The notes under the pieces were generated by a model. That model made no database searches, was not told where the DNA came from, and saw only the letters and a program-made list of their open reading frames with translations. A stretch of DNA of 64,000 nucleotides, taken from Mytilus trossulus. Lineage: Eukaryota. Shown piece after piece: positions 12,174 to 59,079 of the stretch (the first letter of the stretch is position 1; the number at the start of each line of letters is the position of its first letter). A program made the position numbers and the translations under genes. The stretch spans positions 5,022,001-5,086,000 of the forward strand of contig NC_086375.1 of assembly GCF_036588685.1 (NCBI RefSeq), read 5' to 3'.

Positions 12174-13274
12174 ATGGCGGAGGATGGTTCGCCTAACAAT
12201 AACGGAGAAATGCACTACACAACCTCAAGAGCTAATCACAATGAACATTATCGATCAATAAATAATACTAATAACGAGAATGGTTATTCATCAGAGGAAA
12301 GAAGTAACTCGCCTTTGGATTTTTCGTTTAAGAGAAAAAATGGGGACAATGAAATCTCAGGATCAGACTCTGTTCCATCGCCAGCATCAACTAACGATAC
12401 TGGATTAAGTCAGGATCATGATGATAGAAAAATATCAGAAAGTGAGGAAAAAATTCTAATGAATGGACTGGTTAATAAAATCAAGTCCGAACCTGACAGT
12501 AACTGGTCATTGAATCACAATGTAGCAAGTATGTTGACAGCTTTTCAAGCTGGACTTATCCCTAACCCTATGCTTGGACCACTTCCGTCTGTTGCCGCAC
12601 TCATGGCGCCTAAATATCCGCAAAACAAATCTTCATCAACCCGTCCATTCAAATCTTACCCTAAAGACCCATTAGGTATGGGTGGGTATATACCTGGACT
12701 TGTGCCGTCAGATTCTCATGGTTTTCAGAATCTCAACTTAAACAGCGAAGAATTCTTTCATTTGTATCGACATCATATGATGCTAGCGGGCGAGAAAATG
12801 CACGAATCATCTCAATCACCACTATTGCAATCAAAAGCATCGTCCAATGTTACTACGACAAGTTCACCCAGCTCAAGCTCTACTATAAGTCCTAACGGGG
12901 TTAAAAGTGAACACAGTCAGAACGGGTTTAGAAATGGACCCAGTCCTAACGGGTTCAGAAATATACCTAGTCCTAATGGCATCAGACCTGCTCAGCTAAT
13001 GGGTATATCATCTTCAACCGAACACAGAAATTATACATCATCCCGCAAACGTGCAAGAATTTTACCGGAAGAACAAAAAGATGGAGCGTATTGGGAACGG
13101 AGGCGAAAAAATAATGAAGCTGCTAAACGATCGAGGGATATGAGAAGAGCTAAAGAAGATGAGATTGCCATCCGAGCGGCTCTGCTCGAGCAGGAGAATT
13201 TAAAACTACGGGTAGAAGTGGCATCACTGAAAACGGAAACGGCCAAGTTACGTTGTATGTTGTATAACAGTTAA
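12174..13274 (+). CDS. gt: PAR-family bZIP transcription factor, protein Giant-like (366 aa, single coding exon)
   Basis: C-terminal b[44 protein letters not shown]; Giant-type [10 protein letters not shown] motif; CtBP-type PLDFS motif; first ATG at 12174 (ORF-track start 12165 is GTG). Confidence 0.9.
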
Positions 13275-17488: not shown

Positions 17489-17606
17489 CGGGGTGCGGGA
17501 TTTCCCGCGGCTGTGTAGTAGACCCATTTGTGGCCTTCGGCTGTTTTCTGGTTTTGGTCGGGTTGTTGTCTGTTTGACAACTTCGCCAGCTTATTATCTT
17601 AATTTT
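17489..17606 (+). mobile_element. Family A 3' tail, diverged, tail-to-tail with the copy at 17742
   Basis: Similar to 64-180. Confidence 0.65.
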
Positions 17607-17741
17607 GCTATGATATTTATAAATTGCAAGGAAAAACAGGTCTAAATGAAATTTAGATACTTTAATAGAGTCGAGGTAACATGGAGATTTGTATTCGTAA
17701 GTTGCATGATTTTTATCCGCCGTTACGGATTCAGAGTTATA

Positions 17742-18813
17742 ATAAAATTGAGAAAGGAAATGGTGAATATGTCAAAGCGACAACCACCCGACCATAGAGC
17801 AAACAACAACCGAAGGCAACCAATGGGTCTCCAATGTAGCGAGAATTCCCGCACCCGTAGGTGTCCTTCAGCTGGCCCCTAAAATTATGCATAATAGTAC
17901 AGTGATAATGGACGTCATACTAAACTCCGAATTATTCACAGGAAACTAAAATTGAAAATCATACAAGACTAACAAAGGCCAGAGGCTCCTGACTTGGGAC
18001 AGGCGCAAAATTGTTTATGAGATCTCAACCCTCCCCCTATACCTCTAGCCAATGTAGAAAAGTAAAAGAATAACAATACGCACATTAAAATTCAATTCAA
18101 GAGAAGTCCGAGTCCGATGTCAAAAGATGTAACAAAAGAAAATAAATAAGATGACAATAATACATAAATAACAACAGACTACTAGCAGTTAACTGACATG
18201 CCAGCTCCAGACCTCAATTAAACTGATTGAAAGATTATGTCTTCATCATATGAATATCAGGTACAATCCCTCCCGTTAGGGGTTTAGTATCATACTATCA
18301 TAAAATATATGAGAAAAAAACATAACCCGTGTCATGCCAACAACTGTTTTTTTTTTTGTTTTTTTTTTTTTTTAGAAATAAATGTGTAGGTCCGATGCAA
18401 AGACCCTATCAGTGAATCAATGTTAAAGCCAAAATATGCAATCTTTAATGACCTGACAACAGTATCGTAACTATATCCCCTTTTATTAAGTCTATTTAAA
18501 GGTTTTGTTAGTTTCTGATGAGAATACTGACATTTTTGTGCTTTATAAAGAATATTTCCATAAAAAATTGGATGTGAAATACCTGAACGTATAAGATGTC
18601 TGCATGTTGAATTATATTTACGAATTATTTCCTTATACCGGTGATAAAATTTAGTAAATGTTTTAACCAGTTTGTGATATCGAAAACCCTGGTGTAATAA
18701 TTTTTCAGTAATACATAAATTTCTCTCGCTAAAATCTAATACGTTGTTACATACACGAGCGAATCGTACAAGTTGAGATATATAAACACCATAAGATGGT
18801 GACAAGGGAACGT
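17742..18813 (-). mobile_element. 5'-truncated Penelope-like retroelement (Naiad-type): RT thumb/C-terminus plus long 3' region
   Basis: Translation VPLSPSYGVYISQLVRFARVC...LLHQGFRYHKLVKTFTKF; no GIY-YIG after the RT; colinear with 42035-42900. Confidence 0.8.
18243..18314 (-). promoter_or_regulatory. Type II SECIS-like hairpin in the retroelement 3'UTR
   Basis: Minus strand: tcatat-atttt-ATGAT-agtatgatact-AAA-cccctaacggga-gggattgtacc-TGAT-attc-atatga; helix I, GA quartet, 11-bp helix II, AAA, mini-stem. Confidence 0.7.
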
Positions 18814-31615: not shown

Positions 31616-31659
31616 AATGAATTTTGAATTCAAGTTTGCGGCTACAAATACATTACGGT

Positions 31660-31859
31660 AAAATTGAGAAAGGAAATGGTAAATTTGTCAAAGCGACAAC
31701 CACCCCACCATAGAGCAGAAAACAGCCGAAGGCAACCAATGGGTCTTCAGTGTAGCGAGAATTCCCGCACCCGTAGGTGTCCTTCAGCTGGCCCCTAAAA
31801 ATATGCATAATATAGTACAGTGATAATGGACGTCATACTAAACTCCGAATTATACACAG
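31660..31859 (-). mobile_element. Family A 3' tail
   Basis: Near-identical to 17743-17942. Confidence 0.8.
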
Positions 31860-31964
31860 GTATCTGAAAGCGAGTGAAACATTATATGTTTTTGTTTTAT
31901 TTTATCTGTTTTTTATAAAGTTCTTGTTCGTGTATGTTATAAAAAATGTTGTTCATTAAAGTTG

Positions 31965-32250: not shown

Positions 32251-32719
32251 CATGTTTGTGTAGATGAAAGATTAACCCATATCCCCCCAAAAAAAATGAA
32301 TGGTTGGCGTCTGAATGCATGTTACAAATGTACGAAAGCTTCAAGTTTTATATGAAAAATATATTTTTGGTTTTGAAATTCAATAAAAAGTATTCTTATG
32401 TATCTTCGTTCCAAAAAAACAAATGTTCCTTTTTTATTCCGGCTGTCCTTCAATTTAAATCTACTGAAGCAAGAAAAAAGCAAGAAAAAAGTTGTAATAC
32501 TTATATTTTGACACATGTAGTGATATTGACAGCTTGCCCTTCCGAAATAGCTGAGTCCACTCCAGCTATTGATGTGTTCGAAGTGGTTCAATCATTTGTT
32601 TTCTGTAATTTTATTTGATGAACTGCTGTTTGTCTGGTCATCTTTTTTTGGCTTTGATGTTGCTTGTCTGTTTCATTTTGGCCCTGGTAACTGCTGGTGT
32701 TACTCAACTTTTTCATTTT

Positions 32720-35700
32720 CGCGTTGGTGTTGCTCGTCTTTTTCTTTTGGCCTCGGTGTTGCACGTCTGTTTCTTTTGGCCTCGGTGTTGCTCGTCTGTT
32801 TCTTTTGGCCCCGGTGTTGCACGTCTGTTTCTTTTGGCCTCGGTGTTGCACGTCTGTTTCTTTTGGCCTTGGTGTTACACGTCTGTTTCTTTTGGCCTCG
32901 GTGTTACACGTCTGTTTCTTTTGGCCTTGGTGTTACACGTCTGTTTCTTTTGGCCTCGGTGTTGCACGTCTGTTTCTTTTGGCCTCGGTGTTACACGTCT
33001 GTTTCTTTTGGCCTCGGTGTTGCACGTCTGTTTCTTTTGGCCTTGGTGTTACACGTCTGTTTCTTTTGGCCTCGGTGTTACACGTCTGTTTCTTTTGGCC
33101 TTGGTGTTACACGTCTGTTTCTTTTGGCCTCGGAATTGCACGTCTGTTTCTTTTGGCCTCGGTGTTACACGTCTGTTTCTTTTGGCCTCGGTGTTGCACG
33201 TCTGTTTCTTTTGGCCTTGGTGTTACACGTCTGTTTCTTTTGGCCTCGGTGTTACACGTCTGTTTCTTTTGGCCTCGGTGTTGCACGTCTGTTTCTTTTG
33301 GCCTCGGTGTTGCACGTCTGTTTCTTTTGGCCTTGGTGATGCACGTCTGTTTCTTTTGACCTCGGTGTTGCACGTCTGTTTCTTTTGGCCTTGGTGTTGC
33401 ACGTCTGTTTCTTTTGGCCTCGGTGTTGCACGTCTGTTTCTTTTGGCCTTGGTGATGCACGTCTGTTTCTTTTGGCCTCGGTGTTGCACGTCTGTTTCTT
33501 TTGGCCTCGGTGTTGCTCGTCTTTTTCTTTTGGCCTCGGTGTTGCACGTCTTTTTCTTCTGGCATTGGTGTTGCACGTCTGTTTCTTTTGGCTTTGGTGT
33601 TGCACGTTTGTTTCTTTTTGCCTCGGTGTTGCACGTCTGTTTCTTTTGGCCTTGGTGTTACACGTCTGTTTCTTTTGGCCTCGGTGTTACACGTCTGTTT
33701 CTTTTGGCCTCGGTGTTGCACGTCTGTTTCTTTTGGCCTCGGTGATGCACGTCTGTTTCTTTTGGCCTCGGTGTTGCACGTCTGTTTCTTTTGGCCTCGG
33801 TGTTGCACGTCTGTTTCTTTTGGCCTCGGTGTTGCACGTCTGTTTCTTGTGGCCTCGGTGTTGCACGTCTGTTTCTTTTGGCCTTGGTGATGCACGTCTG
33901 TTTCTTTTGGCCTCGGTGTTGCACGTCTGTTTCTTTTGGCCTCGGCGTTGCTCGTCTTTTTCTTCTGGCATTGGTGTTGCACGTCTGTTTCTTTTGGCTT
34001 TGGTGTTGCACGTTTGTTTCTTTTTGCCTCGGTGTTGCTCGTCTGTTTCTTTTGGCCTCGGTGTTGCACGTCTGTTTCTTTTGGCCTCGGTGATGCTCGT
34101 CTGTTTCTTTTGGCCTCGGTGTTGCACGTCTGTTTCTTTTGGCCTCGGTGTTGCACGTCTGTTTCTTTTTGCCTCGGTGTTGCTCGTCTGTTTCTTTTGG
34201 CCTCGGTGTTGCACGTCTGTTTCTTTTGGCCTCGGTGTTGCACGTCTGTTTCTTTTGGCCTCGGTGTTGCTCGTCTTTTTCTTCTGGCATTGGTGTTGCA
34301 CGTCTGTTTCTTTTGGCTTTGGTGTTGCACGTCTTTTTCTTCTGGCATTGGTGTTGTACGTCTGTTTCTTTTGGCCTTGGTGTTGCTCGTCTTTTTCTTC
34401 TGGCATTGGTGTTGCACGTCTGTTTCTTTTGGCCTTGGTGTTACACGTCTGTTTCTTTTGGCCTTGGTGTTGCACGTCTGTTTCTTTTGACCTTGGTGTT
34501 GCACGTCTGTTTCTTTTGGCCTCGGTGTTGCACGTCTGTTTCTTTTAGTCTAGGTGTTGCACGTCTGTTTCTTTAGGCCTCGGTGTTGCACGTCTGTTTC
34601 TTTTGGCCTTGGTGATGCACGTCTGTTTCTTTTGGACTCGGTGTTACACGTCTTTTTCTTTTGGCCTCGGTGTTGCACGTCTCTTTCTTTTGACCTTGGT
34701 GTTGCACGTCTGTTTCTTTTGGCCTCGGTGTTGCACGTCTGTTTCTTTTGGCCTCGGTGATGCACGTCTGTTTCTTTTGGCCTCGGTGATGCACGTCTAT
34801 TTCTTTTGGCCTCGGTGATGCACGTATGTTCCTTTTGGCCTCGGTGTTACACGTCTGTTTCTTTTGGCCTCGGTGATGCACGTCTATTTCTTTTGGCCTC
34901 GGTGATGCACGTCTGTTTCTTTTGGCCTCGGTGTTACACGTCTGTTTCTTTTGGCCTCGGTGTTACACGTCTGTTTCTTTTGGCCTCGGTGATGCACGTC
35001 TGTTTCTTTTGGCCTCGGTAATGCACGTCTATTTCTTTTGGCCTCGGTGATGCACGTCTGTTTCTTTTGGCCTCGGTGTTACACGTCTGTTTCTTTTGGC
35101 CTTGGTGTTACACGTCTGTTTCTTTTGGCCTCGGTGATGCACGTCTGTTTCTTTTGGCCTCGGTGTTACACGTCTGTTTCTTTTGGCCTCGGTGTTACAC
35201 GTCTGTTTCTTTTGGCCTTGGTGTTACACGTCTGTTTCTTTTGGCCTCGGTGTTGCACGTCTGTTTCTTTTGGCCTTGGTGTTGCACGTCTGTTTCTTTT
35301 GGCCTCGGTGATGCACGTCTATTTCTTTTGGCCTCGGTGTTACACGTCTGTTTCTTTAGGCCTCGGTGTTGCACGTCTGTTTCTTTTGGCCTTGGTGTTG
35401 CACGTCTGTTTCTTTTGGCCTCGGTGTTACACGTCTGTTTCTTTTGGCCTCTGTGTTGCACGTCTGTTTCTTTTGGCCTCGGTGTTACACGTCTGTTTCT
35501 TTTGGCCTCGGTGTTACACGTCTGTTTCTTTTGGCCTCTGTGTTGCACGTCTGTTTCTTTTGGCCTCGGTGTTACACGTCTGTTTCTTTTGGCCTCGGTG
35601 TTACACGTCTGTTTCTTTTGGCCTCGGTGATGCACGTCTGTTTCTTTTGGCCTTGGTGTTACACGTCTATTTCTTTTGACCTCGGTGTTGCACGTCTGTT

Positions 35701-38700
35701 TCTTTTGGCCTCGGTGATGCACGTCTGTTTCTTTTTGCCTTGGTGTTGCACGTCTGTTTCTTTTGGCCTCGGTGTTGCACGTCTGTTTCTTTTGGCCTTG
35801 GTGTTACACGTCTGTTTCTTTTGGCCTCGGTGATGCACGTCTGTTTCTTTTGGCCTTGGTGTTGCTCGTCTTTTTCTTTTGGCCTCGTTGTTGCACGTCT
35901 GTTTCTTTTGGCCTTGGTGTTGCACGTCTGTTTCTTTTAGTCTAGGTGTTGCACGTCTGTTTCTTTAGGCCTCGGTGTTACACGTCTGTTTCTTTTGGCC
36001 TCGGTGTTACACGTCTGTTTCTTTTGGCCTTGGTGTTGCTCGTCTTTTTCTTTTGGCCTCGGTGTTGCACGTCTGTTTCTTTTGGCCTTGGTGTTACACG
36101 TCTGTTTCTTTTGGCCTCGGTGATGCACGTCTGTTTCTTTTGGCCTCGGTGTTGCACGTCTGTTTCTTTTGGCCTCGGTGTTGCACGTCTGTTTCTTTTG
36201 GCCTCGGTGATGCACGTCTGTTTCTTTTGGCCTCGGTGTTACACGTCTGTTTCTTTTGGCCTCGGTGTTACACGTCTGTTTCTTTTGGCCTCTGTGTTGC
36301 ACGTCTGTTTCTTTTGGCCTCGGTGTTACACGTCTGTTTCTTTTGGCCTCGGTGTTACACGTCTGTTTCTTTTGGCCTCGGTGATGCACGTCTGTTTCTT
36401 TTGGCCTTGGTGTTACACGTCTATTTCTTTTGGCCTCGGTGTTGCACGTCTGTTTCTTTTGGCCTCGGTGATGCACGTCTGTTTCTTTTTGCCTTGGTGT
36501 TGCACGTCTGTTTCTTTTGGCCTCGGTGTTGCACGTCTGTTTCTTTTGGCCTTGGTGTTACACGTCTGTTTCTTTTGGCCTCGGTGATGCACGTCTGTTT
36601 CTTTTGGCCTTGGTGTTGCTCGTCTTTTTCTTTTGGCCTCGGTGTTGCACGTCTGTTTCTTTTGGCCTTGGTGTTGCACGTCTGTTTCTTTTAGTCTAGG
36701 TGTTGCACGTCTGTTTCTTTAGGCCTCGGTGTTACACGTCTGTTTCTTTTGGCCTCGGTGTTACACGTCTGTTTCTTTTGGCCTTGGTGTTGCTCGTCTT
36801 TTTCTTTTGGCCTCGGTGTTGCACGTCTGTTTCTTTTGGCCTTGGTGTTACACGTCTGTTTCTTTTGGCCTCGGTGATGCACGTCTGTTTCTTTTGGCCT
36901 CGGTGTTGCACGTCTGTTTCTTTTGGCCTCGGTGATGCACGTCTGTTTCTTTTGGCCTCGGTGTTGCACGTCTGTTTCTTTTGGCCTCGGTGTTACACGT
37001 CTGTTTCTTTTGGCCTCGGTGTTGCACGTCTGTTTCTTTTGGCCTCGGTGTTACACGTCTGTTTCTTTTGGCCTCGGTGATGCACGTCTGTTTCTTTTGG
37101 CCTCGGTGATGCACGTCTGTTTCTTTTGGCCTAGGTGATGCACGTCTGTTTCTTTTGGCCTCGGTGATGCACGTCTGTTTCTTTTGGCCTCGGTGTTGCA
37201 CGTCTGTTTCTTTTGGCCTCGGTGTTGCTCGTCTGTTTCTTTTGGCTTTGGTGTTGCACGTTTGTTTCTTTTGGCCTTGGTGATGCACGTCTGTTTCTTT
37301 TGGCCTCGGTGTTGCACGTCTGTTTCTTTTGGCCTCGATGTTGCACGTCTGTTTCTTTTGGCCTCGAGGTTACACGTCTGTTTCTTTTGGCCTCGGTGTT
37401 GCACGTCTGTTTCTTTTGGCCTCGGTGTTACACGTCTGTTTCTTTTGGCCTCGGTGATGCACGTCTGTTTCTTTTGGCCTCGGTGTTACACGTCTGTTTC
37501 TTTTGGCCTCGGTGATGCACGTCTGTTTCTTTTGGCCTCGGTGATGCACGTCTGTTTCTTTTGGCCTCGGTGATGCACGTCTGTTTCTTTTGGCCTCGGT
37601 GATGCACGTCTGTTTCTTTTGGCCTCGGTGATGCACGTCTGTTTCTTTTGGCCTCGGTGATGCACGTCTGTTTCTTTTGGCCTCGGTGATGCACGTCTGT
37701 TTCTTTTGGCCTCGGTGATGCACGTCTGTTTCTTTTGGCCTCGGTGATGCACGTCTGTTTCTTTTGGCCTAGGTGATGCACGTCTGTTTCTTTTGGCCTC
37801 GGTGTTGAACGTTTATTTCTTTTGGTCTAGGTGATGAACGTTTATTTCTTTTGGTCTAGGTGATGAACGTTTATTTCTTTTGGTCTAGGTGATGAACGTT
37901 TATTTCTTTTGGTCTAGGTGATGAACGTTTATTTCTTTTGGTCTAGGTGATGAACGTCTATTTCTTTTGGCCTTGGTGTTGCACGTCTTTTTCTTTTGGT
38001 CTAGGTGATGAACGTTTATTTCTTTTGGTCTAGGTGATGAACGTTTATTTCTTTTGGTCTAGGTGATGAACGTTTATTTCTTTTGGTCTAGGTGATGAAC
38101 GTCTATTTCTTTTGGCCTTGGTGTTGCACGTCTTTTTCTTTTGGCCTTGGTGTTGCACGTCTGTTTCTTTTGGCCCCGGTGTTACACGTCTGTTTCTTTT
38201 GGTCTAGGTGATGAACGTTTATTTCTTTTGGTCTAGGTGATGAACGTCTATTTCTTTTGGCCTTGGTGTTGCACGTCTTTTTCTTTTGGCCTTGGTGTTG
38301 CACGTCTGTTTCTTTTGGCCCCGGTGTTACACGTCTGTTTCTTTTGGTCTAGGTGATGAACGTTTATTTCTTTTGGTCTAGGTGATGAGCGTCTATTTCT
38401 TTTGGCCTTGGTGTTGCACGTCTTTTTCTTTTGGCCTTGGTGTTGCACGACTGTTTCTTTTGGCCCCTGTGATGCATGTCTGTTTCTTTTGGTCTTGGTA
38501 ATGAACGCCTGTTTCTTTTGGCCCCTGTGATGCATGTCTGTTTCTTTTGGTCTTGGTAATGAACGCCTGTTCCTTTTGGCCCCTGTGATGCATGTCTGTT
38601 TCTTTTGGTCTAGGTCATGAACGCCTGTTTCTTTTGGCCCCTGTGATGCATGTCTGTTTCTTTTGGTCTTGGTAATGAACGCCTGTTTCTTTTGGCCCCT

Positions 38701-39080
38701 GTGTTGCACGTCTGTTTCTTTTGGTCTTGGTAATGAACGCCTGTTTCTTTTGGCCCCTGTGTTGCACGTCTGTTTCTTTTGGTCTTGGTAATGAACGCCT
38801 GTTTCTTTTGGCCCCTGTGTTGCACGTCTGTTTCTTTTGGTCTAGGTCATGAACGTCTATTTATTTTTGCCTTGGTGTTGCATATCTTTGTCTTTGGCCT
38901 AAGTGTTGCTCGTCTGGGTTTTTTTTGTCTTGGTTTTGCTCGTCTTTTTCATTTGGCCTTGGTGTTGCTCGTCTGTGTTGTTTTTGGCCTTTGTGTTGCA
39001 CGTCTGTTTCTTTGAACCTTGGTTATTAACGCATTCTCTTTTTGCCTTGGTGTCGTCGTCTGTTTCTTTTGATCTTGGCG
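32720..39080. repeat. Large satellite array, 29-bp unit, ~220 copies
   Basis: cacgtctgtttcttttggcctcggtgttg with regional variants and degenerate edges. Confidence 0.97.
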
Positions 39081-40470: not shown

Positions 40471-41000
40471 AAAAAGAAGATGTGGTATGATTGCAAATAA
40501 GACAACAGTCCACAAGAAACCAAAAATGACACAGACAATAAAAACTATAGGTGGCCGTACGGCCTTCAAAAATGAGCAAAGCCCATACCGCATAGTCAGC
40601 AATAAAAGGCCTCGATAAGACAACGTAAAACAATTCAAACGAGAAAACTAACGAATGAACAAAAAACAAAATTGTAACACATAAACTAACGACAACCTCT
40701 GAATTACAGGCTCCTGATTTGGGGCAGGAACATACATAAATAATGTGGCGGGGTTAAACATGTTAGCGGTATCCCAACCCTTCCCCTAATCTGGGACAGT
40801 GGTATAACAGTACAACATAAGAACGAATTATAAAAATCAGTTGAAAAAGCCTTAAATCATCAGATGGACAAAAATAAGTAGACGTGGCCGGGTACATCCC
40901 GACACAAAAAGACACAATGAACAGATCTGAGAGTACTCGCAGTTATCTGACAGTCAGTTCAAAGCCACTAACAACTAATAAAAAATAATGCATCTAAGAC
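40471..41000. mobile_element. Longer family B-related dispersed repeat
   Basis: Begins aaaaagaagatgtggtatgattgcaaataagacaac; shares ggctcctga(c/t)ttggg(a/g)cagg block with the Naiad 3' region. Confidence 0.6.
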
Positions 41001-42034: not shown

Positions 42035-44660
42035 AAACAAGAAAATAAAAATAAAAATTATACAAGACTTACAAAGGCCAGAGGCTCCAGACTTGGAACA
42101 GGCGCAAGAATGCGGCGGGGTTTAACACGTTTATGAGATCTAAACCCTCCCCTATAACTCAAGCCAATGTAGAAAAGTAAACGCATCACAATATGCACAT
42201 TAAAATTCAGTTCAAGAGACGTCCGAGTCTGTTGTCAGAATATGTAACCAAAGAAAATAAATAAAATGACAATACTTCATAAATAACAACAGACTACTAG
42301 CAGTTAACTGACATGCCCGCTCCAGACTTCAACTAAACTGATTGAAAGATTATGTCTTTATCATATGAACAATAGGCACAATCCTTTCCGTTAGGGGTTT
42401 AGTATCATACTATCATAACAAATATGAGAAGAACATAACCCGTGTCATGCCAATATCTGGTTTGTAAATAAATGTGTGAAAAGACCCTATAAGTGAATCA
42501 ATATTAACACCAACATATGCAATCTTTAATGACCTGACAACAGTATCGTAACAATATCCATTCTTAATAAGTCTATTAAAAGGTTTTGTTAGCTTCTGAG
42601 GTGAATACTCACATGTTTGTGCTTTATAAAGAATATTTCCAAAAAAATTGGATGTGAAATACCTGAACGTATAAGAAGTCTGCATGTTAAGCTATATTTA
42701 CGAATGATCTTCTTATAGTGATGATAAAATTTAGTAAATGTTTGGCCTAGTTTGTGATATCGAAAACCCTGGTGTAATAATTTTTCAGTATTAAATACAT
42801 AAATTTCTCTCGTTAAAATCTCCAATATTGTTACATATACGAGCGAATCGTACAAGTTGAGATATATAAACACCGTAAAGATGGTGACAAGGGAACGCCA
42901 CCATCTAAAAATGGATCATTAACGATAGTAAATGAAAAATCATCTCTTTTATCCTAAATTTTAGTATTAAGCTTTCCGTTAATGATATAGATATCAAGAT
43001 CGAGGAAAAGGCAGTGGTCAATGTTAGTATTAGTTTTATTCAAAGTAAGTTCAACATGATAAAGTTCTTTAGTATACATACTGAAGTCGTCATTATTGAG
43101 AGACAACATATCATTCAAATAACTAAAAGTATTATTAAATGTGAATCAGATGTTGTTTCGATGGGTCTTTGCTGTTTTTTGTCATAAATTGTAACTCATA
43201 GCAATACAAAAACAGGTCCGCAATAAATGGTGCACAGTTAGTCCCCATTAGAATCCCGATAACCTGAAAATATACGGAATCTCCAAAGCGAACGAAAATG
43301 TTATCTAGTAAAAATTCAAGGGCAGATATAGTAACAAAGCATGTCCAATTGACAAAGTTTTTTAGTTGATTGCTACTAGAAAATGACCTAAACGAGTTTG
43401 AACATGTATATTCACACTCTGACTTTATAAATGCCAATTTAATTAGGTATGTGGCTTTTTTTCTTAATGGAAATGTGAGGCAATGTGGTATATTGGGTAG
43501 AAAAATCAAAAGGTTGAATAGATTCAAAATCACCAATATAATCATGCAGTTTATCAAGTACTTACAACGAGTTTTTGACACTCCAAAAGTAATTAATTCC
43601 ACTATTTTCGAGGGGCCATTTTCGAAGGCCTTATTTGAACAATTTATTATCAGTTTTTTTATTTTACCAAGTGTACTGGTAAGAACAATAGACAATTTAG
43701 CAGAGGAACAATGGCTTGAAGACGAAATAAATCTATATTTGTAGGGTGTTTTGTGGAGCTTCGGAAGCCAATACATCGTATTTGGTTCTGCTTGTAAAGC
43801 GGTAGATGTTTTTTTACAGATGCCGTTTGCTGAAAATGGAGTCAGTTGGAATGTTGGTGAATTGGTGATTTCTTTTTGCAGATCCTTAATGTAAAATTTA
43901 CGGGGCGCCGAATGGGACTTGCGTTTTGTAATCAAAATCAATTTTGTGTACACAAAATTCAATTATGACATAGCAAAATCATTTTTGTCATTTGTTTTAA
44001 TTTCCATATTAGGTACCAAAATTCAATTTTGTATGCAAATAGGTATGCAAATATAAACTTATTTGCATACAAAATTGACTTTTGTTACCTAATATGGAAA
44101 TTAAAACACAAAAGTCAATTTTGTGGGACAAAATTGAATTTGTACACAATTAACAAGTTGATCAAATTAGCATCATGTGATTTTGTAATGAATTTTGTGT
44201 TTATTTTTGTGTAGACAAAATTGACTTTTGTGACACAAAATTGACTTTTGTGACACAAAATTGACTTTTGTGGCACAAAGTTGACTTTTGTGTTAAATTT
44301 TCCCTTCTGTTTAACAAAACTCATTTTTTTTCTACACAAAATCTCAGTTTTGTATGCAAATTAGTTCACTGAATTCAAACTAAACTAATTAGCATACAAA
44401 ATTGACTTTTGTCGCCCAATTTTCAATTAGGTAACAAAAGTAAAGTCTGTGTTACAAAAATGAATTTTGTTATGACAACAGTAACTTTTGTCCACTGAAA
44501 GATAATTAAATTTGTAGTATGCTACAAATTTTGTTAAACTGAAATCATTTTTGTTGAACAAAACTCACTTTTGTCCGTACAAAATTGAATTTCGAGTACA
44601 AAACTACAAGAGTCCCATTCGGCGCCACGTAAAATTTACGTCAAACAATAATAATAGCAG
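42035..44660 (-). mobile_element. Decayed Penelope-like (Naiad-type) RT retroelement, interrupted by a MITE
   Basis: MYWLPKLHKTPYKYRFI, FDFSTQYTTLPH (motif A, frameshifted), GILMGTNCAP (B), FSYLND (mutated YLDD), FLDLDI, YISQL-type thumb; stops and frameshifts. Confidence 0.85.
43899..44631. mobile_element. MITE with TACG...CGTA ends inserted in the RT ORF
   Basis: TIR tacggggcgccgaatgggact / agtcccattcggcgccacgta; duplicated gtaaaatttacg makes TSD length ambiguous (5-11 bp); internal acaaaattgacttttgt repeats. Confidence 0.85.
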
Positions 44661-46407: not shown

Positions 46408-46852
46408 TAGAATCATATTCAAAACAGTGTGGTCCTGGCCATTGATTGACGATCTAAATTATCCCATTGACTTGGACAGATTAGGTGAACGTTTGTCTGT
46501 AACGACCATTGCTCACTTCTTACTTATTATAGAATTTAAACTGTGGGGTCACCAAAGGTTCTTAACGCCTCTAATGATAAAAGAATTCGAAAAATTATTC
46601 AGGAATAACGTTTATGTTTTGATTTATATTATTGATATAAATCAACACATTGTATTATTCAGGATTCGTTTTTCGAATTGCTTTATTTAGGGGTTGAGAA
46701 CCTTTGGTGACCCCACAGATTCAGTGTCTTTAACAAGTACATAGTGAGCAGTGGTTGTTACCGACAAACGTTCACCTAATCTGTCCCAGTCAATGGGATA
46801 ATTTAGGTCGTCAATCAATGGCCAGGACCACACTATTTTGAATATGATTCTA
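46408..46852. mobile_element. MITE with ~165-bp TIRs, TAG...CTA ends, TAT TSD (Academ-like)
   Basis: tagaatcatattcaaaa...ggtcaccaaaggttct mirrored at 46690-46852; TAT at 46405-46407 and 46853-46855. Confidence 0.8.
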
Positions 46853-47659: not shown

Positions 47660-48252
47660 TGTGGCCGGATGCGGCCGTTTCACCTATTCTTATTTTCGCG
47701 TTTTTCCGTTCACTTTGCAAACGCGAAATCGGGGAAGCGAGAAAGCGAAAACGCGAAATAGATTATTGAGAAATCGGTAAAGCCAGAAATCGAACATGCA
47801 AACTCGAGAAAACGAAATCGAGAAATCGCAAAAAGCGAAAAAGCGAAATCGGTTCATTGAGAAATCGAGAAATCAGGACATCGAAAACGCGAAAACGGGA
47901 AAATGGGAAATCTGGAAAGAGAAAACGTGAAATCAGAAACCGGGATATCGCGAAATCGCGAAATCAAGAAACCAAGAAAGCAAAGGCGCACAACGCGAAA
48001 ACAGGAAATTAAACAGATTTATCGATTTTCCTGAACCGGTCACCATATGTTATAGTTGCCGGATGCGGTCATTTCGCATTTTCGTTTTCGCTTTTTTTAT
48101 TTTCCAATTTCCCGATTTCTCAATTTCTCGATATCACTTTCTCGATTTCTTGATTTCTGATTTCCCTATTTTTCGATTTCGCGATTTCGCAGTTGCAAAG
48201 TGAGAGGCGAAAACGCGAAATGGTGAAATGGTCGAAATTTGACCTAGCTATA
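47660..48252. mobile_element. Two degenerate MITE-like units rich in gcgaaa/tttcgc repeats
   Basis: gccggatgcgg starts at ~47665 and ~48058; internal strand-symmetric repeats. Confidence 0.45.
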
Positions 48253-48413
48253 ATATCTTACTTTTTACATATTGTAACGTGGATGGAGAGTTGTCTAACT
48301 TGCTCTCAGACCAAATCTTCTTTTAGTACTATATATATTACCTTCTAAAACGAATGTGTGCGCAAGATGAATTATGATGAAGCTTATTTGCTCATTTCAG
48401 GGACACGTATAAA

Positions 48414-49208
48414 ATGGACAACCCTGACGAACTCCGAATCATATTATTAGGAAAAACAGGTGCTGGAAAAAGTAAGACAGGAAATTCGATACTCGGAAGG
48501 GATGCATTCAAGTACGGTGATTATGGTTCTTCCGTTACATCAATCTGTCAAAAGGAGACTTCCGGTAGATTTGGGAAGAAAATTGACGTGGTTGATACTC
48601 CCGGGGTTTTTGATACTGATCAAGACAATGAGACGATTCAACGAGAAGTAAAACGGAGCATTATCTTATCTTCTCCTGGTCCGCATGCTATCCTACTTTG
48701 TATTCGAGTGGCTCGATTTACAAGGGAAGATGTCAAAACACTTGAACACTTCGTGAGATATTTCGGGAAGGAGATGCTTAAATACGTAGTTGTTATCTTC
48801 ACACACTTAGATCAACTTTTAGACGACTACATTGATCAAAATGAAAATCAAACTAAAACAAATTTTATAAGTTCTCTACCAAAAGATGCTCAACAATTTC
48901 TGAGAATGTGCGGCAACCGGTATTTGTTTTTTAATAACAGAAGAAGAGGGAGCGAAAACGATAATCAAATAAAAGATCTTCTAATGACTGTTTCGTCAGT
49001 TCGGCAGCAAAACGGAAATACTTGCTACACTAATTCAGATTACAAGAAGGTTGAACTGATGCTTCAAGAACGTATGAAGGAAGAAAATGAAGACAGAGAT
49101 ACTGTTATAAATAACGACGAGTTTTACTTAAAAGTTATGGAAGTAATTGGTGTTGTTAGTAAAATTGCCTTAAAATTTGTTGAGATCATGTTAGAATTAG
49201 ACGGCTGA
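48414..49208 (+). CDS. GTPase IMAP family (GIMAP/AIG1) protein 1, 264 aa
   Basis: LLGKTGAGKS (G1), SVT (G2), DTPG (G3), SPGPHA..RFT conserved box, FTHLD (G4), FNN (G5); acceptor TTTCAG ends 48400; AATAAA 49452. Confidence 0.95.
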   Translation: MDNPDELRIILLGKTGAGKSKTGNSILGRDAFKYGDYGSSVTSICQKETSGRFGKKIDVVDTPGVFDTDQDNETIQREVKRSIILSSPGPHAILLCIRVARFTREDVKTLEHFVRYFGKEMLKYVVVIFTHLDQLLDDYIDQNENQTKTNFISSLPKDAQQFLRMCGNRYLFFNNRRRGSENDNQIKDLLMTVSSVRQQNGNTCYTNSDYKKVELMLQERMKEENEDRDTVINNDEFYLKVMEVIGVVSKIALKFVEIMLELDG

Positions 49209-50097: not shown

Positions 50098-50493
50098 ATA
50101 AAGGGTTCCGAAAATGACTAGTGGAAAACTATTTAAACGGGAAAACCAACGATCAAATCTATGTAAAAAACGAGACACCAATGAACCACAACAACAAACG
50201 ATAACTACTGAACATCAGATTCCTGACCTAAGACAGGTTAAAATAAATACAGCGGGTTAAAACGTTTTAAAACATTCACCTTTGTTGTCGTTTAAGCTAT
50301 TAATTATTTTATGATACATTACATATGAAAGTTGTTAATGTTTGTGTCATGTTGGTCTTTTGTGGATAGTTGTCTCATTGGCAATCATACCACACCTTCT
50401 TTTTTTATATTTAATTGAAAAAGAAATAATTTTTCAGATAACATTTCCGTAACTTTTTAATTATTTGATGATCCCGTTTAATTTCAGCCATCA

Positions 50494-51246
50494 ATGGCTT
50501 CTTATGAGATTGAAGACTGGGTGAAACCTGTTAACACTTTCGTGCTTTTAGGCAGACCTGGATCCGGTAAAAGTCGAACAGGAAATACAATAACAGGATG
50601 TAATAAAGCGTTTGAGTTTGGTTTTCATTCCAAAACAACGTCTAAAAAGTGTGAATCTAAGTTAACGGAAATATGTGAAGCTGAAGTTTGTGTAATCGAC
50701 ACTCCTGGGGTTTCCGTGTTTGAAAAACAGGATTTTGAGGACATTCAATCAGCTTTGCCCGAAGAAGGACCAAGTAAAATCATATTTCTCCTTTGTGTAT
50801 CTATAGGGAGACTGACCCATGATGAAATCTCGCTTATAAATCAGTACTTTGCAGTTTTTGGTGATGAGTTTGCGGATAATACTATCATTATATTTACTCA
50901 CTTGGATGAATGGGAGTCCGACATGAACGACCGCAATGTCGAGAACCCAAAGTTTGACAGTTATCTCCACGAATTACCAGAACAAACCAAGACAATTTTC
51001 CGACGTTTCCATAACAGATATCTACCATTAAACAACAAACAGAAAAAGAGAGAAGAAACGCAATGGAACTTGAAACTAATGACAATTGCCAATTCTATGC
51101 AAGGGTTTAACATATCATACAACTTTCCTACCGTTAGCTACTCGAGCTATTTAAGAGAAATGGCTTTAAACTACTCAATCTATCTCAGAGAAATGGCTTT
51201 TAGATGTCTACGAAACATTCAAGGAAAAGTATTCGGCAATGATTGA
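50494..51246 (+). CDS. GIMAP/AIG1 protein 2, 250 aa
   Basis: LLGRPGSGKS, DTPG, IGRLT, FTHLD, LNN; acceptor TTTCAG ends 50487; AATAAA 51305. Confidence 0.92.
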   Translation: MASYEIEDWVKPVNTFVLLGRPGSGKSRTGNTITGCNKAFEFGFHSKTTSKKCESKLTEICEAEVCVIDTPGVSVFEKQDFEDIQSALPEEGPSKIIFLLCVSIGRLTHDEISLINQYFAVFGDEFADNTIIIFTHLDEWESDMNDRNVENPKFDSYLHELPEQTKTIFRRFHNRYLPLNNKQKKREETQWNLKLMTIANSMQGFNISYNFPTVSYSSYLREMALNYSIYLREMAFRCLRNIQGKVFGND

Positions 51247-53334: not shown

Positions 53335-53404
53335 ATTCACTGGTTTGCTTTAGCAATCGAATTATTGAAATGGCTGTGCACGTTTTATTTGTTTTCAGTA
53401 CAAC

Positions 53405-54085
53405 ATGGCTGCTGAAACCAACGTTTCAGACCAGACCATTAATTTAGTTCTGCTTGGGAGAAAAGGATCTGGAAAAAGCAGAACTGGCAATACTATTCTC
53501 GGATCTAATGAGGCATTTAAATTTGGATATCAAATCGAAACTAACTCATGCGCAGTAGAAAGGGCATCTCGGTTTGACAGACACCTGCGTGTGATCGATA
53601 CCCCAGGAACAGATACTTTCTCACCAGAGGAAAGTGTAAAATTACGAAAACATATTTCGGAAAAGTCTAAGGGAAATATCATATATCTTTTATGCATTAA
53701 GATTGGACGTTTCACCGAAGAGGAAAACACATTAATTAATCAATACATCAGGTATGTAGGTCAAGATTTTGAAAAGGCGACCATTGTAATTTTTACTCAT
53801 TTAGACGAGTGGATATCAGATTGTCAGGATCAAGGAATATTGGAGCCAAAATTTGAAGACTTCATCACAACTCTCGATAAAAACTCTATTCAACTGCTTA
53901 ACAAATTCGATATGAGATATAAACCTTTGAACAATAGACAAAGTGGGAATGATGAACTTGTTAAACAAATAATATGCATGGCGGAACAAATAACTCGTCA
54001 GCCATCTTTTTCAAGAGCAGTTACTCAACGTCAATGTGAACCGGAAGTCGAAAGTCAATCAATTTTATGTTGTAATTTTATGTAA
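53405..54085 (+). CDS. GIMAP/AIG1 protein 3, 226 aa, C-terminal CCNFM
   Basis: LLGRKGSGKS, DTPG, IGRFT, FTHLD, LNN; acceptor TTTCAG ends 53398. Confidence 0.92.
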   Translation: MAAETNVSDQTINLVLLGRKGSGKSRTGNTILGSNEAFKFGYQIETNSCAVERASRFDRHLRVIDTPGTDTFSPEESVKLRKHISEKSKGNIIYLLCIKIGRFTEEENTLINQYIRYVGQDFEKATIVIFTHLDEWISDCQDQGILEPKFEDFITTLDKNSIQLLNKFDMRYKPLNNRQSGNDELVKQIICMAEQITRQPSFSRAVTQRQCEPEVESQSILCCNFM

Positions 54086-56810: not shown

Positions 56811-59079
56811 TACTAAATTATGATCCTGGTACCTTTGATAACTTTTTATTTAAAATAAAAAGCCAAATCGATCTAAGGTCAACTTTGTCTGAGGAAGTTG
56901 AAACGAGGAAATTAATCTTTGTTTCATTATCTTGCAGTTTTTAGTCTCTTTACGAAGGTTTCCTTCGGTTTTAGTTTTTAGACTGGATTTGTTTTCTCTC
57001 AATCTATTTTTGATTTTCGAACCGCGGTATACTTGTGTTGACTTTATGTAGGAACCAAGTTTTTGACTTGCATTTCCATAGCTTACTAAATCATAAGTTG
57101 ATGATAACAAACATTGCGTTTTTTTTCCTTTCGGAGCACCTAAGATCACCCCCTGTTTTTGATGGGGTTCGTGTTGCTTAGTCGTTATTTTTTTATGTTG
57201 TGTCTTCAGTACTTTTATTTTTCTGTATTATTTGACTGTCCCTCTGGTACGTGTATCTTTCGTCACTCTTTCTTTATGTAGTTCTCTTAGGGTTCATTTA
57301 TTCTTCAAAAACAGGCTTAATTGGATAATGCTCATATGTTTTAGAATCGTGAATTGAAACGGGGAATGTGTTCGAAGAGACAATAACTCGACAAAAGAGC
57401 AAAAACAGTTCATTCATAGTTAGATTCGTCAGTTTGTCCTGTTTAATTGTTTGATTCAGTTTTCGACTAATTCTTATCATTCAAACTTATTAAACTTGAA
57501 AACGAGTTCATGAACCCCTCTTTTTGAAAATGCGATTGTGTTCGATTACATAAGAAGATTTTGTTTGCCAATTTTCATGAAAACGACAATAGTGCAATTT
57601 TTTTTAAATTTAATAAATACACAGCAAAAATAATGTGTTTTCTACACATGAACATTTGGTGAGTATGAGTTAATTGAAAAACCAAAATGCACAAAAAAGG
57701 ACAAACAGAATTTACAAATGATTTAACAAAAAACAGCTTGTGTTTATCTTTTAGCAAAAAATCTATGAACTCTTTAGAAGAAGTAAAATAGATTTTGATA
57801 TTAAATTGCAACATCTGGTATTTGGATATAAAATCACAGATAGTAATTATTATTTTCTGAATTATATACTAACAGTATTAAGTTTTTCTATATATAAGTC
57901 ATACTACGTATCCGAGCAGAGGACAAAAACTGTTGATGTCTTTAGCATTTTTGAAAATGAATTTAATAAAAGAATAGATGCATATAAATCAAGATGTCCA
58001 ATATTATTGTCAATTAGAAAGAATTTTTAGCATTGATAAATCTTTGCATAAGACAACTATACAACTTTATATTATTTTTTATAACTTAATAAGTTGGATC
58101 AGCTGTTTATTTCCCTGGATAATTTGTGGAGTGTAACAGGGTAAATCAAGAGAAGCTTGGACTCTTGGTGAAACTTGTAACAAGCAAGATTAGATGAATA
58201 AATATTATTATGTTGTTAAAAAAAACAAAAAAAACACAAAAGTTATGTATTTCTGTCGAAAGAAAAAATACGCCCACAAATCCGAATTTTGAGCAAATAT
58301 ATAAAATTTCGACCTCGTTTTACTCAAAAAGTAGCTAGTGAAAGTATATTTTTTAATACATATTTGATTTAATCATGCAAAAAAAGCCTATATGCAAATT
58401 GTCAGAATAATTTCAATATGGGATCAAAACTGTATCGTATTCCCTTAAGTTAAGACTCCCAATTTTGGGGCCACACTTTTGTCATTTTGATGGTAGACTT
58501 TTGTTGGTGTTTAGCCTATTGAAATTCAGAAGCTAGTTCGTTGGAAAAAGCAAGAGTTCCAAAACACTATATGATGTGATCTCGTTTAAAATGGTGAGAC
58601 TTAGGTCATGGACGCTATGCCCTTATTTGATCAACAATTCTGTATTGCAGTTTTGTGGTTTGCTCTGGTAGTTATCATATCATATACCCCGATATTTCAA
58701 TTGGACTCAATAAATTTTTTATCTGATAGAGTTCACACCTGACGCCCCTTTGTTATGATATATTTTAGACATTACGCAATGGAATATTGTCTTTTTTAAT
58801 GATGATGGTGGTTTGTCTTTTCCTTTTTAGTTACTCTCATGAAATTCAATTGGATATGTTTTTTAACACTGTAGCTATCTGTTGTTAATGAAGATGTGTA
58901 CATATGTTGTACGAAAACAGTTTGTTAATTTACATTGGTTCAACACTGGGCAGCGAACAATCTTCCCATGTCATGACGGTTGACAAAGCCTCTTTGAATA
59001 TGGGAGCACCTGTGTATCCCACGAAAAATCTACTACTATTTATCTATATTGATAATCTACAAGATTACCATACTATATA

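Follow-up and report, generated by a model that had tools for sequence, protein, structure and literature searches.

Selenoproteins have already been described among the Naiads, a group of Penelope-like retroelements. Four families, from two clams and two spiders, have been described with UGA in place of the Cys codon eight residues past the DKA motif (‘DKA+8’), and of a Cys codon ahead of the GIY-YIG motif (Craig et al. 2021, PMC8557442). In the accessible text of that paper, these selenocysteine (Sec)-type Naiads are predictions, all four of their SECIS elements are of type I and, in three families, the SECIS lies 1–21 nt past the stop codon. The mussel family described here is represented by a decayed copy in 64,000 nucleotides of Mytilus trossulus DNA (‘the window’), and by intact loci from metagenomes, of which L001 is our reference.

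As far as the accessible text allows comparison, the clam elements Naiad_Mmer (Mercenaria mercenaria) and Naiad_Scon (Sinonovacula constricta) have, like the mussel family, UGA before GIY-YIG, at the first Cys of the CCHH motif and at DKA+8, together with a 3′ SECIS (PMC8557442). Judged by eye, they also have the same longer spacing of the CCHH cysteines as L001. Unlike the clam elements, the mussel family has a fourth UGA, in the CX2-5CxxC finger, where it replaces the second Cys; both clam proteins keep Cys there. The mussel SECIS carries a type II-like apical mini-stem and lies 51 nt past the stop, in contrast to type I in all four published families and 1–21 nt in three of them. The spider (Stegodyphus) elements Naiad_Sdum and Naiad_Smim, compared by their published descriptions, agree with the mussel family in two UGA sites, DKA+8 and the Cys ahead of GIY-YIG, and Naiad_Sdum also in a third, the second Cys of CX2-5CxxC. 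In both, UGA replaces the first Cys of this finger, which is Cys in the mussel family, but not the CCHH Cys, and the IFD is reduced. Naiad_Mgal, Naiad_Mcor and Naiad_Bpla, from mytilids, have the same host group and domain order as the mussel Sec family, but are listed without UGA or SECIS, and their endonuclease motif differs. Naiad_Mgal and Naiad_Mcor have an open ORF without UGA and a short CxxC spacing in the CCHH finger (PMC8557442); the L001 family matches neither trait.

Three 11-nt motifs from the 3′ UTR of the L001 family are absent from the supplement of the same paper, in which line breaks could mask a match. No further relevant paper was found among the results listed for the literature searched, most subscription journals, Repbase and Dfam lying outside the search. 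Sec at DKA+8 in Naiad RTs is already published for clam and spider (PMC8557442), which limits the surprise of our core claim; the mussel case was not found in the searchable literature. New, on the sequences compared, are a predicted Sec-type Mytilus family, its SECIS of likely type II, and SECIS-bearing sister families with Cys at DKA+8, two of which have TGA elsewhere.

The interrupted copy in the window

An in-frame TGA occupies window positions 44643–44641 on the minus strand (44641..44643). The original prediction uncovered it by removing a MITE and one copy of the duplicated target, and alignment to L001 bears this out: 28 of 28 bases from 44656 to 44629 are identical to L001:2052–2079, and beyond the MITE the element resumes at 43902, the equivalent of L001:2068. 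By alignment, homologue column and read data, the TGA is codon 522 of the family ORF, eight residues past DKA, and is likely a Sec codon in intact copies. Homology to the family begins at 44656, and the copy is therefore 5′-truncated just upstream of the codon; the stub that remains (44629..44656, minus strand) lacks DKA. The placing of the TGA ‘after the DK motif’ thus stands for intact relatives, in which the site is DKA+8, but not for the window copy itself. Of the restored reading AIIIV*, the IIIV*RKFY register matches L001, and the ‘A’ is mostly flanking sequence.

The MITE splits the copy 3 bp downstream of the TGA codon. The minus strand reads IIIV*RKFY until 44629, enters a 729-bp insertion with inverted ends, and continues with RKFYIKDLQKEI from 43902. 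By repeat analysis, the MITE (43901..44629, approximately 729 bp, ends accurate to within a few bases) has inverted repeats at its ends and, internally, tandem units of 20 bp; it also contains long palindromes. Up to 12 bp are present on either side of it—the left copy at 44629..44640, with a 9-bp core at 44638–44630, and the right copy at 43891..43902, both on the minus strand by alignment to L001—and the empty site reads IIIV*RKFY. Because the junction matches intact L001 on both sides, the target was duplicated when the MITE inserted. This target is an AT-rich near-palindrome, and in the single copy available duplications of 9 and 11 bp fit best, and equally well. Every duplication length tested, including that of the original prediction, yields the identical empty site. 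With a duplication of 9–11 bp, the MITE is probably Mutator-like. There is no second copy of it in the 64 kb of the window, and its end motif matches three viral contigs that have nothing else in common with the window. Rfam found no SECIS in the window region; the MITE gave hairpin look-alikes (miRNA models), all below their gathering scores.

The remainder of the decayed copy (42037..43902, minus strand; L001:2068–3951 by alignment) retains a decayed RT and some of the 3′ region. It contains frameshifts and two more stops, the ORF's own stop is deleted, and the RT catalytic motif, YLDD, has become YLND (43110..43121, minus strand, by alignment). Identity to L001 is 91.6% (1703 of 1860 bases), with 12 indels, in keeping with the decay that had been claimed for it. 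Among 470 codons compared with L001, 69 differ non-synonymously and 33 synonymously, a pattern that reads as neutral decay; all 13 downstream Cys codons are still TGT or TGC. A SECIS remnant at 42362..42426 (minus strand, by alignment) has its 5′ core and AAA loop intact and its 3′ core changed from UGAU to UAUU. The Rfam SECIS models do not match it at E≤5, and it is likely non-functional. The ‘two separate signals’ that had been proposed, TGA and SECIS, apply to the family; in the window copy, the second is mutated in its core. Truncated at the 5′ end, split by the MITE, and decayed down to the SECIS core, the window copy is a dead relic, unable to make a protein.

The family ORF and its SECIS

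Eight metagenome loci (L001–L008) were taken as family and sister sequences. In L001–L003, one ORF of 1002 codons has four internal stops, all of them TGA (codons 55, 86, 97 and 522) and none TAA or TAG. L002 and L003 are near-identical, so these loci, which are probably collapsed assemblies, represent two independent variants (L001 and L002 are 93% identical in DNA). Codon 522 is TGA in all three. The original prediction held that this TGA fills a conserved Cys slot, and suggested that further TGA/Cys sites might be found in the missing N-terminal part. Both ideas proved sound. Among 150 cluster representatives, Cys is present in 119 of the 133 homologues that span codon 522, and in 36/51, 43/56 and 45/60 of those that span codons 55, 86 and 97, respectively, the three sites in the endonuclease region; the non-Cys rows in these columns are nearly all gaps. 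Counted from the motif instead, Cys is found at DKA+8 in 87 of 92. Elsewhere in the ORF, Cys is encoded by TGT or TGC (25 times) and Trp by TGG (seven times), TGA being used solely at the four conserved Cys sites. Between L001 and L002, dS is 0.275 and dN/dS is 0.10 overall, with values of 0.04, 0, 0.10 and 0.11 in four segments around the TGAs. Since dN/dS is low in all four, selection acts on the ORF as a single protein.

The closest database protein (P0004, 91% identity, in a cluster of 133) begins at the first Met past the TGA. Among the cluster members listed, none exceeds 435 residues, and the starts shown are all past codon 522. Relatives at 62–64% identity run across the codon-522 site with Cys. 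N-termini of homologues fall at columns 524–531 in 41 of 120 cases and at columns 510–523 in none, which is a hint only, as the stretch is Met-poor and the search was length-limited. A search with P0040 as query found no loci in genome contigs or viral contigs, and one with profile A2 found none in viral contigs.

The state of the codon was also followed in read data, by mapping the 56 bases of L001:2038–2093 at a likeness cut of 86% and listing variants from 1%. Three DNA runs (229, 363 and 548 contigs; 1,140 in total) and one RNA run (135 reads) were used. At the TGA codon (L001:2065–2067), no variant of at least 1% was listed in any of the four, where shares are depth-weighted, contigs lose rare variants, and the 86% cut leaves out Cys-type sister families. 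TGA, not TGT or TGC, is thus the state of the copies checked, in the three intact loci as in the four read sets. Around the codon, five differences were listed, of which four are synonymous changes at third positions and the fifth, in codon 523, is a CpG change. All 135 RNA reads span the codon unchanged, and none is only partly aligned. Strand counts at the codon are 104 sense versus 31 antisense in one RNA run, if the library was stranded in the usual way; the other run has no clear excess. Read depth climbs steeply toward the 3′ end of the element.

By its layout, the family is a Naiad Penelope-like retroelement. The ORF codes for an N-terminal GIY-YIG endonuclease, a CxC linker, the DKA motif and a C-terminal RT, in this order. 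In L001, whose four UGA residues are written U, we recognize a CX2-5CxxC finger (C50/U55/C58), a CCHH motif (U97/C102), a basic block at approximately 218–235, the CxC motif (C385/C387), KGPKY as the GxKF/Y motif, and YLDD at codon 787. The DKA motif is PADKAANN in L001–L003, and so is DKA rather than DKG. L001 is 4.1 kb in length (Naiads, 3.4–4.4 kb), and its 3′ end recurs upstream of its ORF, as a pseudo-LTR or partial tandem. No hammerhead ribozyme was matched in L001–L008 by the Rfam models at E≤10. Pfam returned neither a GIY-YIG nor an RT match for the L001 ORF, the family going unrecognised. The profile of alignment A3 matches the GIY-YIG domain of I-TevI at its N-terminus (profile positions 65–153, E 0.001), a family-level result for a region that the window copy lacks. 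The read-through protein, modelled with Cys at the TGAs, has a predicted fold with a mean pLDDT of 87 and a pTM of 0.72, and the best 16 Foldseek matches to the model are telomerase RTs. Residue 522 closes a β-strand ahead of a helix in this predicted structure.

The SECIS of L001 was detected as a full-length match to Rfam SECIS_1, 51 nt past the TAA stop. Scores are 32.3 bits for L001 and L006, 30.9 for L002 and L003, and 28 for L004, all below the gathering score of 35; E values are 0.007–0.017 for the 31–32-bit matches. Core, helix II and AAA loop are kept across divergent families. Eight to 10 of the 10 helix II pairs persist in L001, L002, L004, L005, L007 and L008 despite differing sequences (e.g. 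9/10 in L001, and 10/10 in L004 with a different sequence), the hairpins of L005, L007 and L008 coming from a hand-made motif scan with no Rfam match. In its strict form (at least nine pairs), the motif has a single occurrence when the window is scanned on both strands. The folding z-scores of L001 (–1.85) and of a second window copy at 18 kb with an intact core (–0.18) are modest. The apical mini-stem of the L001 hairpin suggests that the family SECIS is likely of type II.

Sister families and the reading of the UGA codons

At the codon-522 site, the sister families L004, L007, L008, P0002 and P0003 have Cys. Two of these have TGA elsewhere, together with Cys at DKA+8 and a SECIS-like hairpin: L004 at the first Cys of CxC (L004:2–4, at the extreme edge of the contig), and L007, a single frameshifted sequence, at approximately 41–43, which is column 434 and is Cys in only eight of 124 homologues. 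A distant Sec-type Naiad family (L009–L012, 45% identity) has TGA at the codon-522 site. Its member L009:1249–4632, which occurs as tandem copies, has five internal TGAs (codon 522, CxC and three others). Its SECIS scores 42 bits, and the UGA of the SECIS core is the TGA that follows next in this frame. L009 lies inside a bacterial MAG, and is likely host contamination. When 15 further loci were scanned with Rfam, SECIS matches were found on L009 and L011 (42 bits), L015 (39 bits) and L013 (29 bits). There was no match in the eight Cys-type loci, of which two are short, possibly without the 3′ UTR, or in the three whose codon-522 state is not known. L013 (1271–1334) and L015 (1060–1123), both Naiad fragments with a SECIS, come from assemblies that carry bacterial labels, and are probably animal contamination. 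L014 has an open frame of 1019 residues, Cys at the codon-522 site, no SECIS match and 38% identity to L001. It is near-identical by eye to Naiad_Bpla.

In a quick tree (SH-aLRT support only, the careful search being unfinished and the clam and spider proteins not included), a single clade of 33 rows, support 98, takes in every one of the nine loci that bear a SECIS or SECIS-like hairpin, and excludes L014. Among the 14 rows of the subclade that contains L001, L001 and L002 have TGA at codon 522, seven have Cys, and the state of five is not known. The comparison suggests that Sec and Cys may switch between sites within one SECIS-bearing clade. Five database proteins (P0144, P0153, P0324, P0327 and P0332) have W at Naiad Cys columns, probably because a gene caller read TGA as Trp; P0144 and P0153 resemble the Cys-type P0151 around the motif, and could be another Cys/Sec switch. 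Whether the selenoprotein Naiads form one large SECIS-bearing clade with family-to-family Sec/Cys swaps among cysteine sites, and not four isolated cases, we judge to be evenly balanced. If they do, they would offer a natural series for studies of Cys/Sec exchange, and the many 5′-truncated copies would scatter ready-made SECIS elements in mussel genomes, which could seed host selenoproteins. Mixed Sec/Cys states among sisters would make the origin of Cys-to-Sec changes testable.

We consider it very probable that the TGA is an inherited codon of the Mytilus Naiad family and is read as Sec in intact copies; Sec insertion at the family's UGAs we infer from sequence. The original prediction cautioned that one TGA could be a random TGY-to-TGA change in a decayed copy. 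Such decay is evident in the window copy, with its two other new stops and 12 indels, but the same TGA is present in three of three intact loci, the four runs list no variant, and none of the 13 other Cys codons of the copy has turned into TGA. A chance TGA in the window copy is ruled out by the intact loci and the read data, and we accord the caution virtually no probability. We give as little credence to a host nuclear code in which UGA would stand for Cys or Trp everywhere. We found no point in favour of this; Mytilus, as an animal, is expected to use the standard nuclear code, and the ORF confines TGA to four conserved Cys sites while using TGT/TGC and TGG everywhere else. Loss of the UGA at the RNA level, through splicing or through editing to UGG, would accord with the W found at TGA positions in three database proteins of the L009 family. 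This W matches every L009 TGA checked, however, and so points to a gene caller that reads TGA as Trp; homologues have Cys at the site, not Trp; and every RNA read over the codon is fully aligned, without a listed change there. We regard such loss as extremely improbable.

More weight, though still little, attaches to the UGAs being true stops. They could be leaky, with read-through as Cys, Trp or Arg, or the family could be non-autonomous and moved by a Cys-type sister. Such sisters exist, as the five named above testify; TGA followed by C is a leaky stop context, and C follows two of the four TGAs in the family ORF. Four leaky stops in series, on the other hand, would yield almost no complete protein, and a passenger element would not show purifying selection of the strength seen here, dN/dS of 0.10 across the whole ORF. 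The stops are, moreover, confined to Cys columns, and the SECIS-like hairpin is conserved. We consider this explanation very unlikely.

Sec decoding in eukaryotes involves the SECIS, SBP2, eEFSec and tRNA-Sec. In the mussel family, SBP2 and eEFSec on the SECIS would bring Sec-tRNA to each UGA, and the host machinery would insert Sec at all four. Three of the Sec residues would lie in or beside zinc-finger-like motifs of the endonuclease, and the fourth, Sec522, where the RT region begins. Our best guess is that Sec522 acts as a thiol-like ligand or in redox, a putative role. A stop at any of the four UGAs, and so termination at codon 522 or earlier, would leave no RT. Transposition would therefore require Sec to be inserted, and probably a supply of selenium as well; if Sec insertion holds, transposition would be tied to the selenium supply of the host. 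Sec-coding retrotransposons would then extend to a very abundant Mytilus family, which gene callers cut at the UGA.

Other features of the window

Another 5′-truncated copy of the L001 family, the second in the window, lies at 17741–18813 on the minus strand and has 94.6% identity to the L002/L003 variant. It lacks the TGA region, and its SECIS core is intact at approximately 18247–18311. Short 3′-end fragments of this or related Naiads occur at 44–180, 477–565, 17491–17606, 31659–31869, 40708–40845 and 57342–57407. There are no tRNA genes in the 64-kb window. An uninterrupted bZIP ORF at 12174–13274 (plus strand) falls in a 90% cluster with proteins of Mytilus edulis and M. galloprovincialis, and clusters with Mytilus proteins resembling giant or hepatic leukemia factor, which marks the window as Mytilus DNA. 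Three ORFs on the plus strand, at 48381–49208, 50482–51246 and 53369–54085, contain a P-loop and are presumably GIMAP/AIG1-like GTPases. A long tandem-repeat array occupies approximately 32500–39000; its AT skew is extreme, reaching –0.77, and each strand contains long open frames. Inverted-repeat elements are present at 46408–46852 and 47700–48230, one with 126-bp arms that are 91% identical, and one made up of short GCGAAA-type units.
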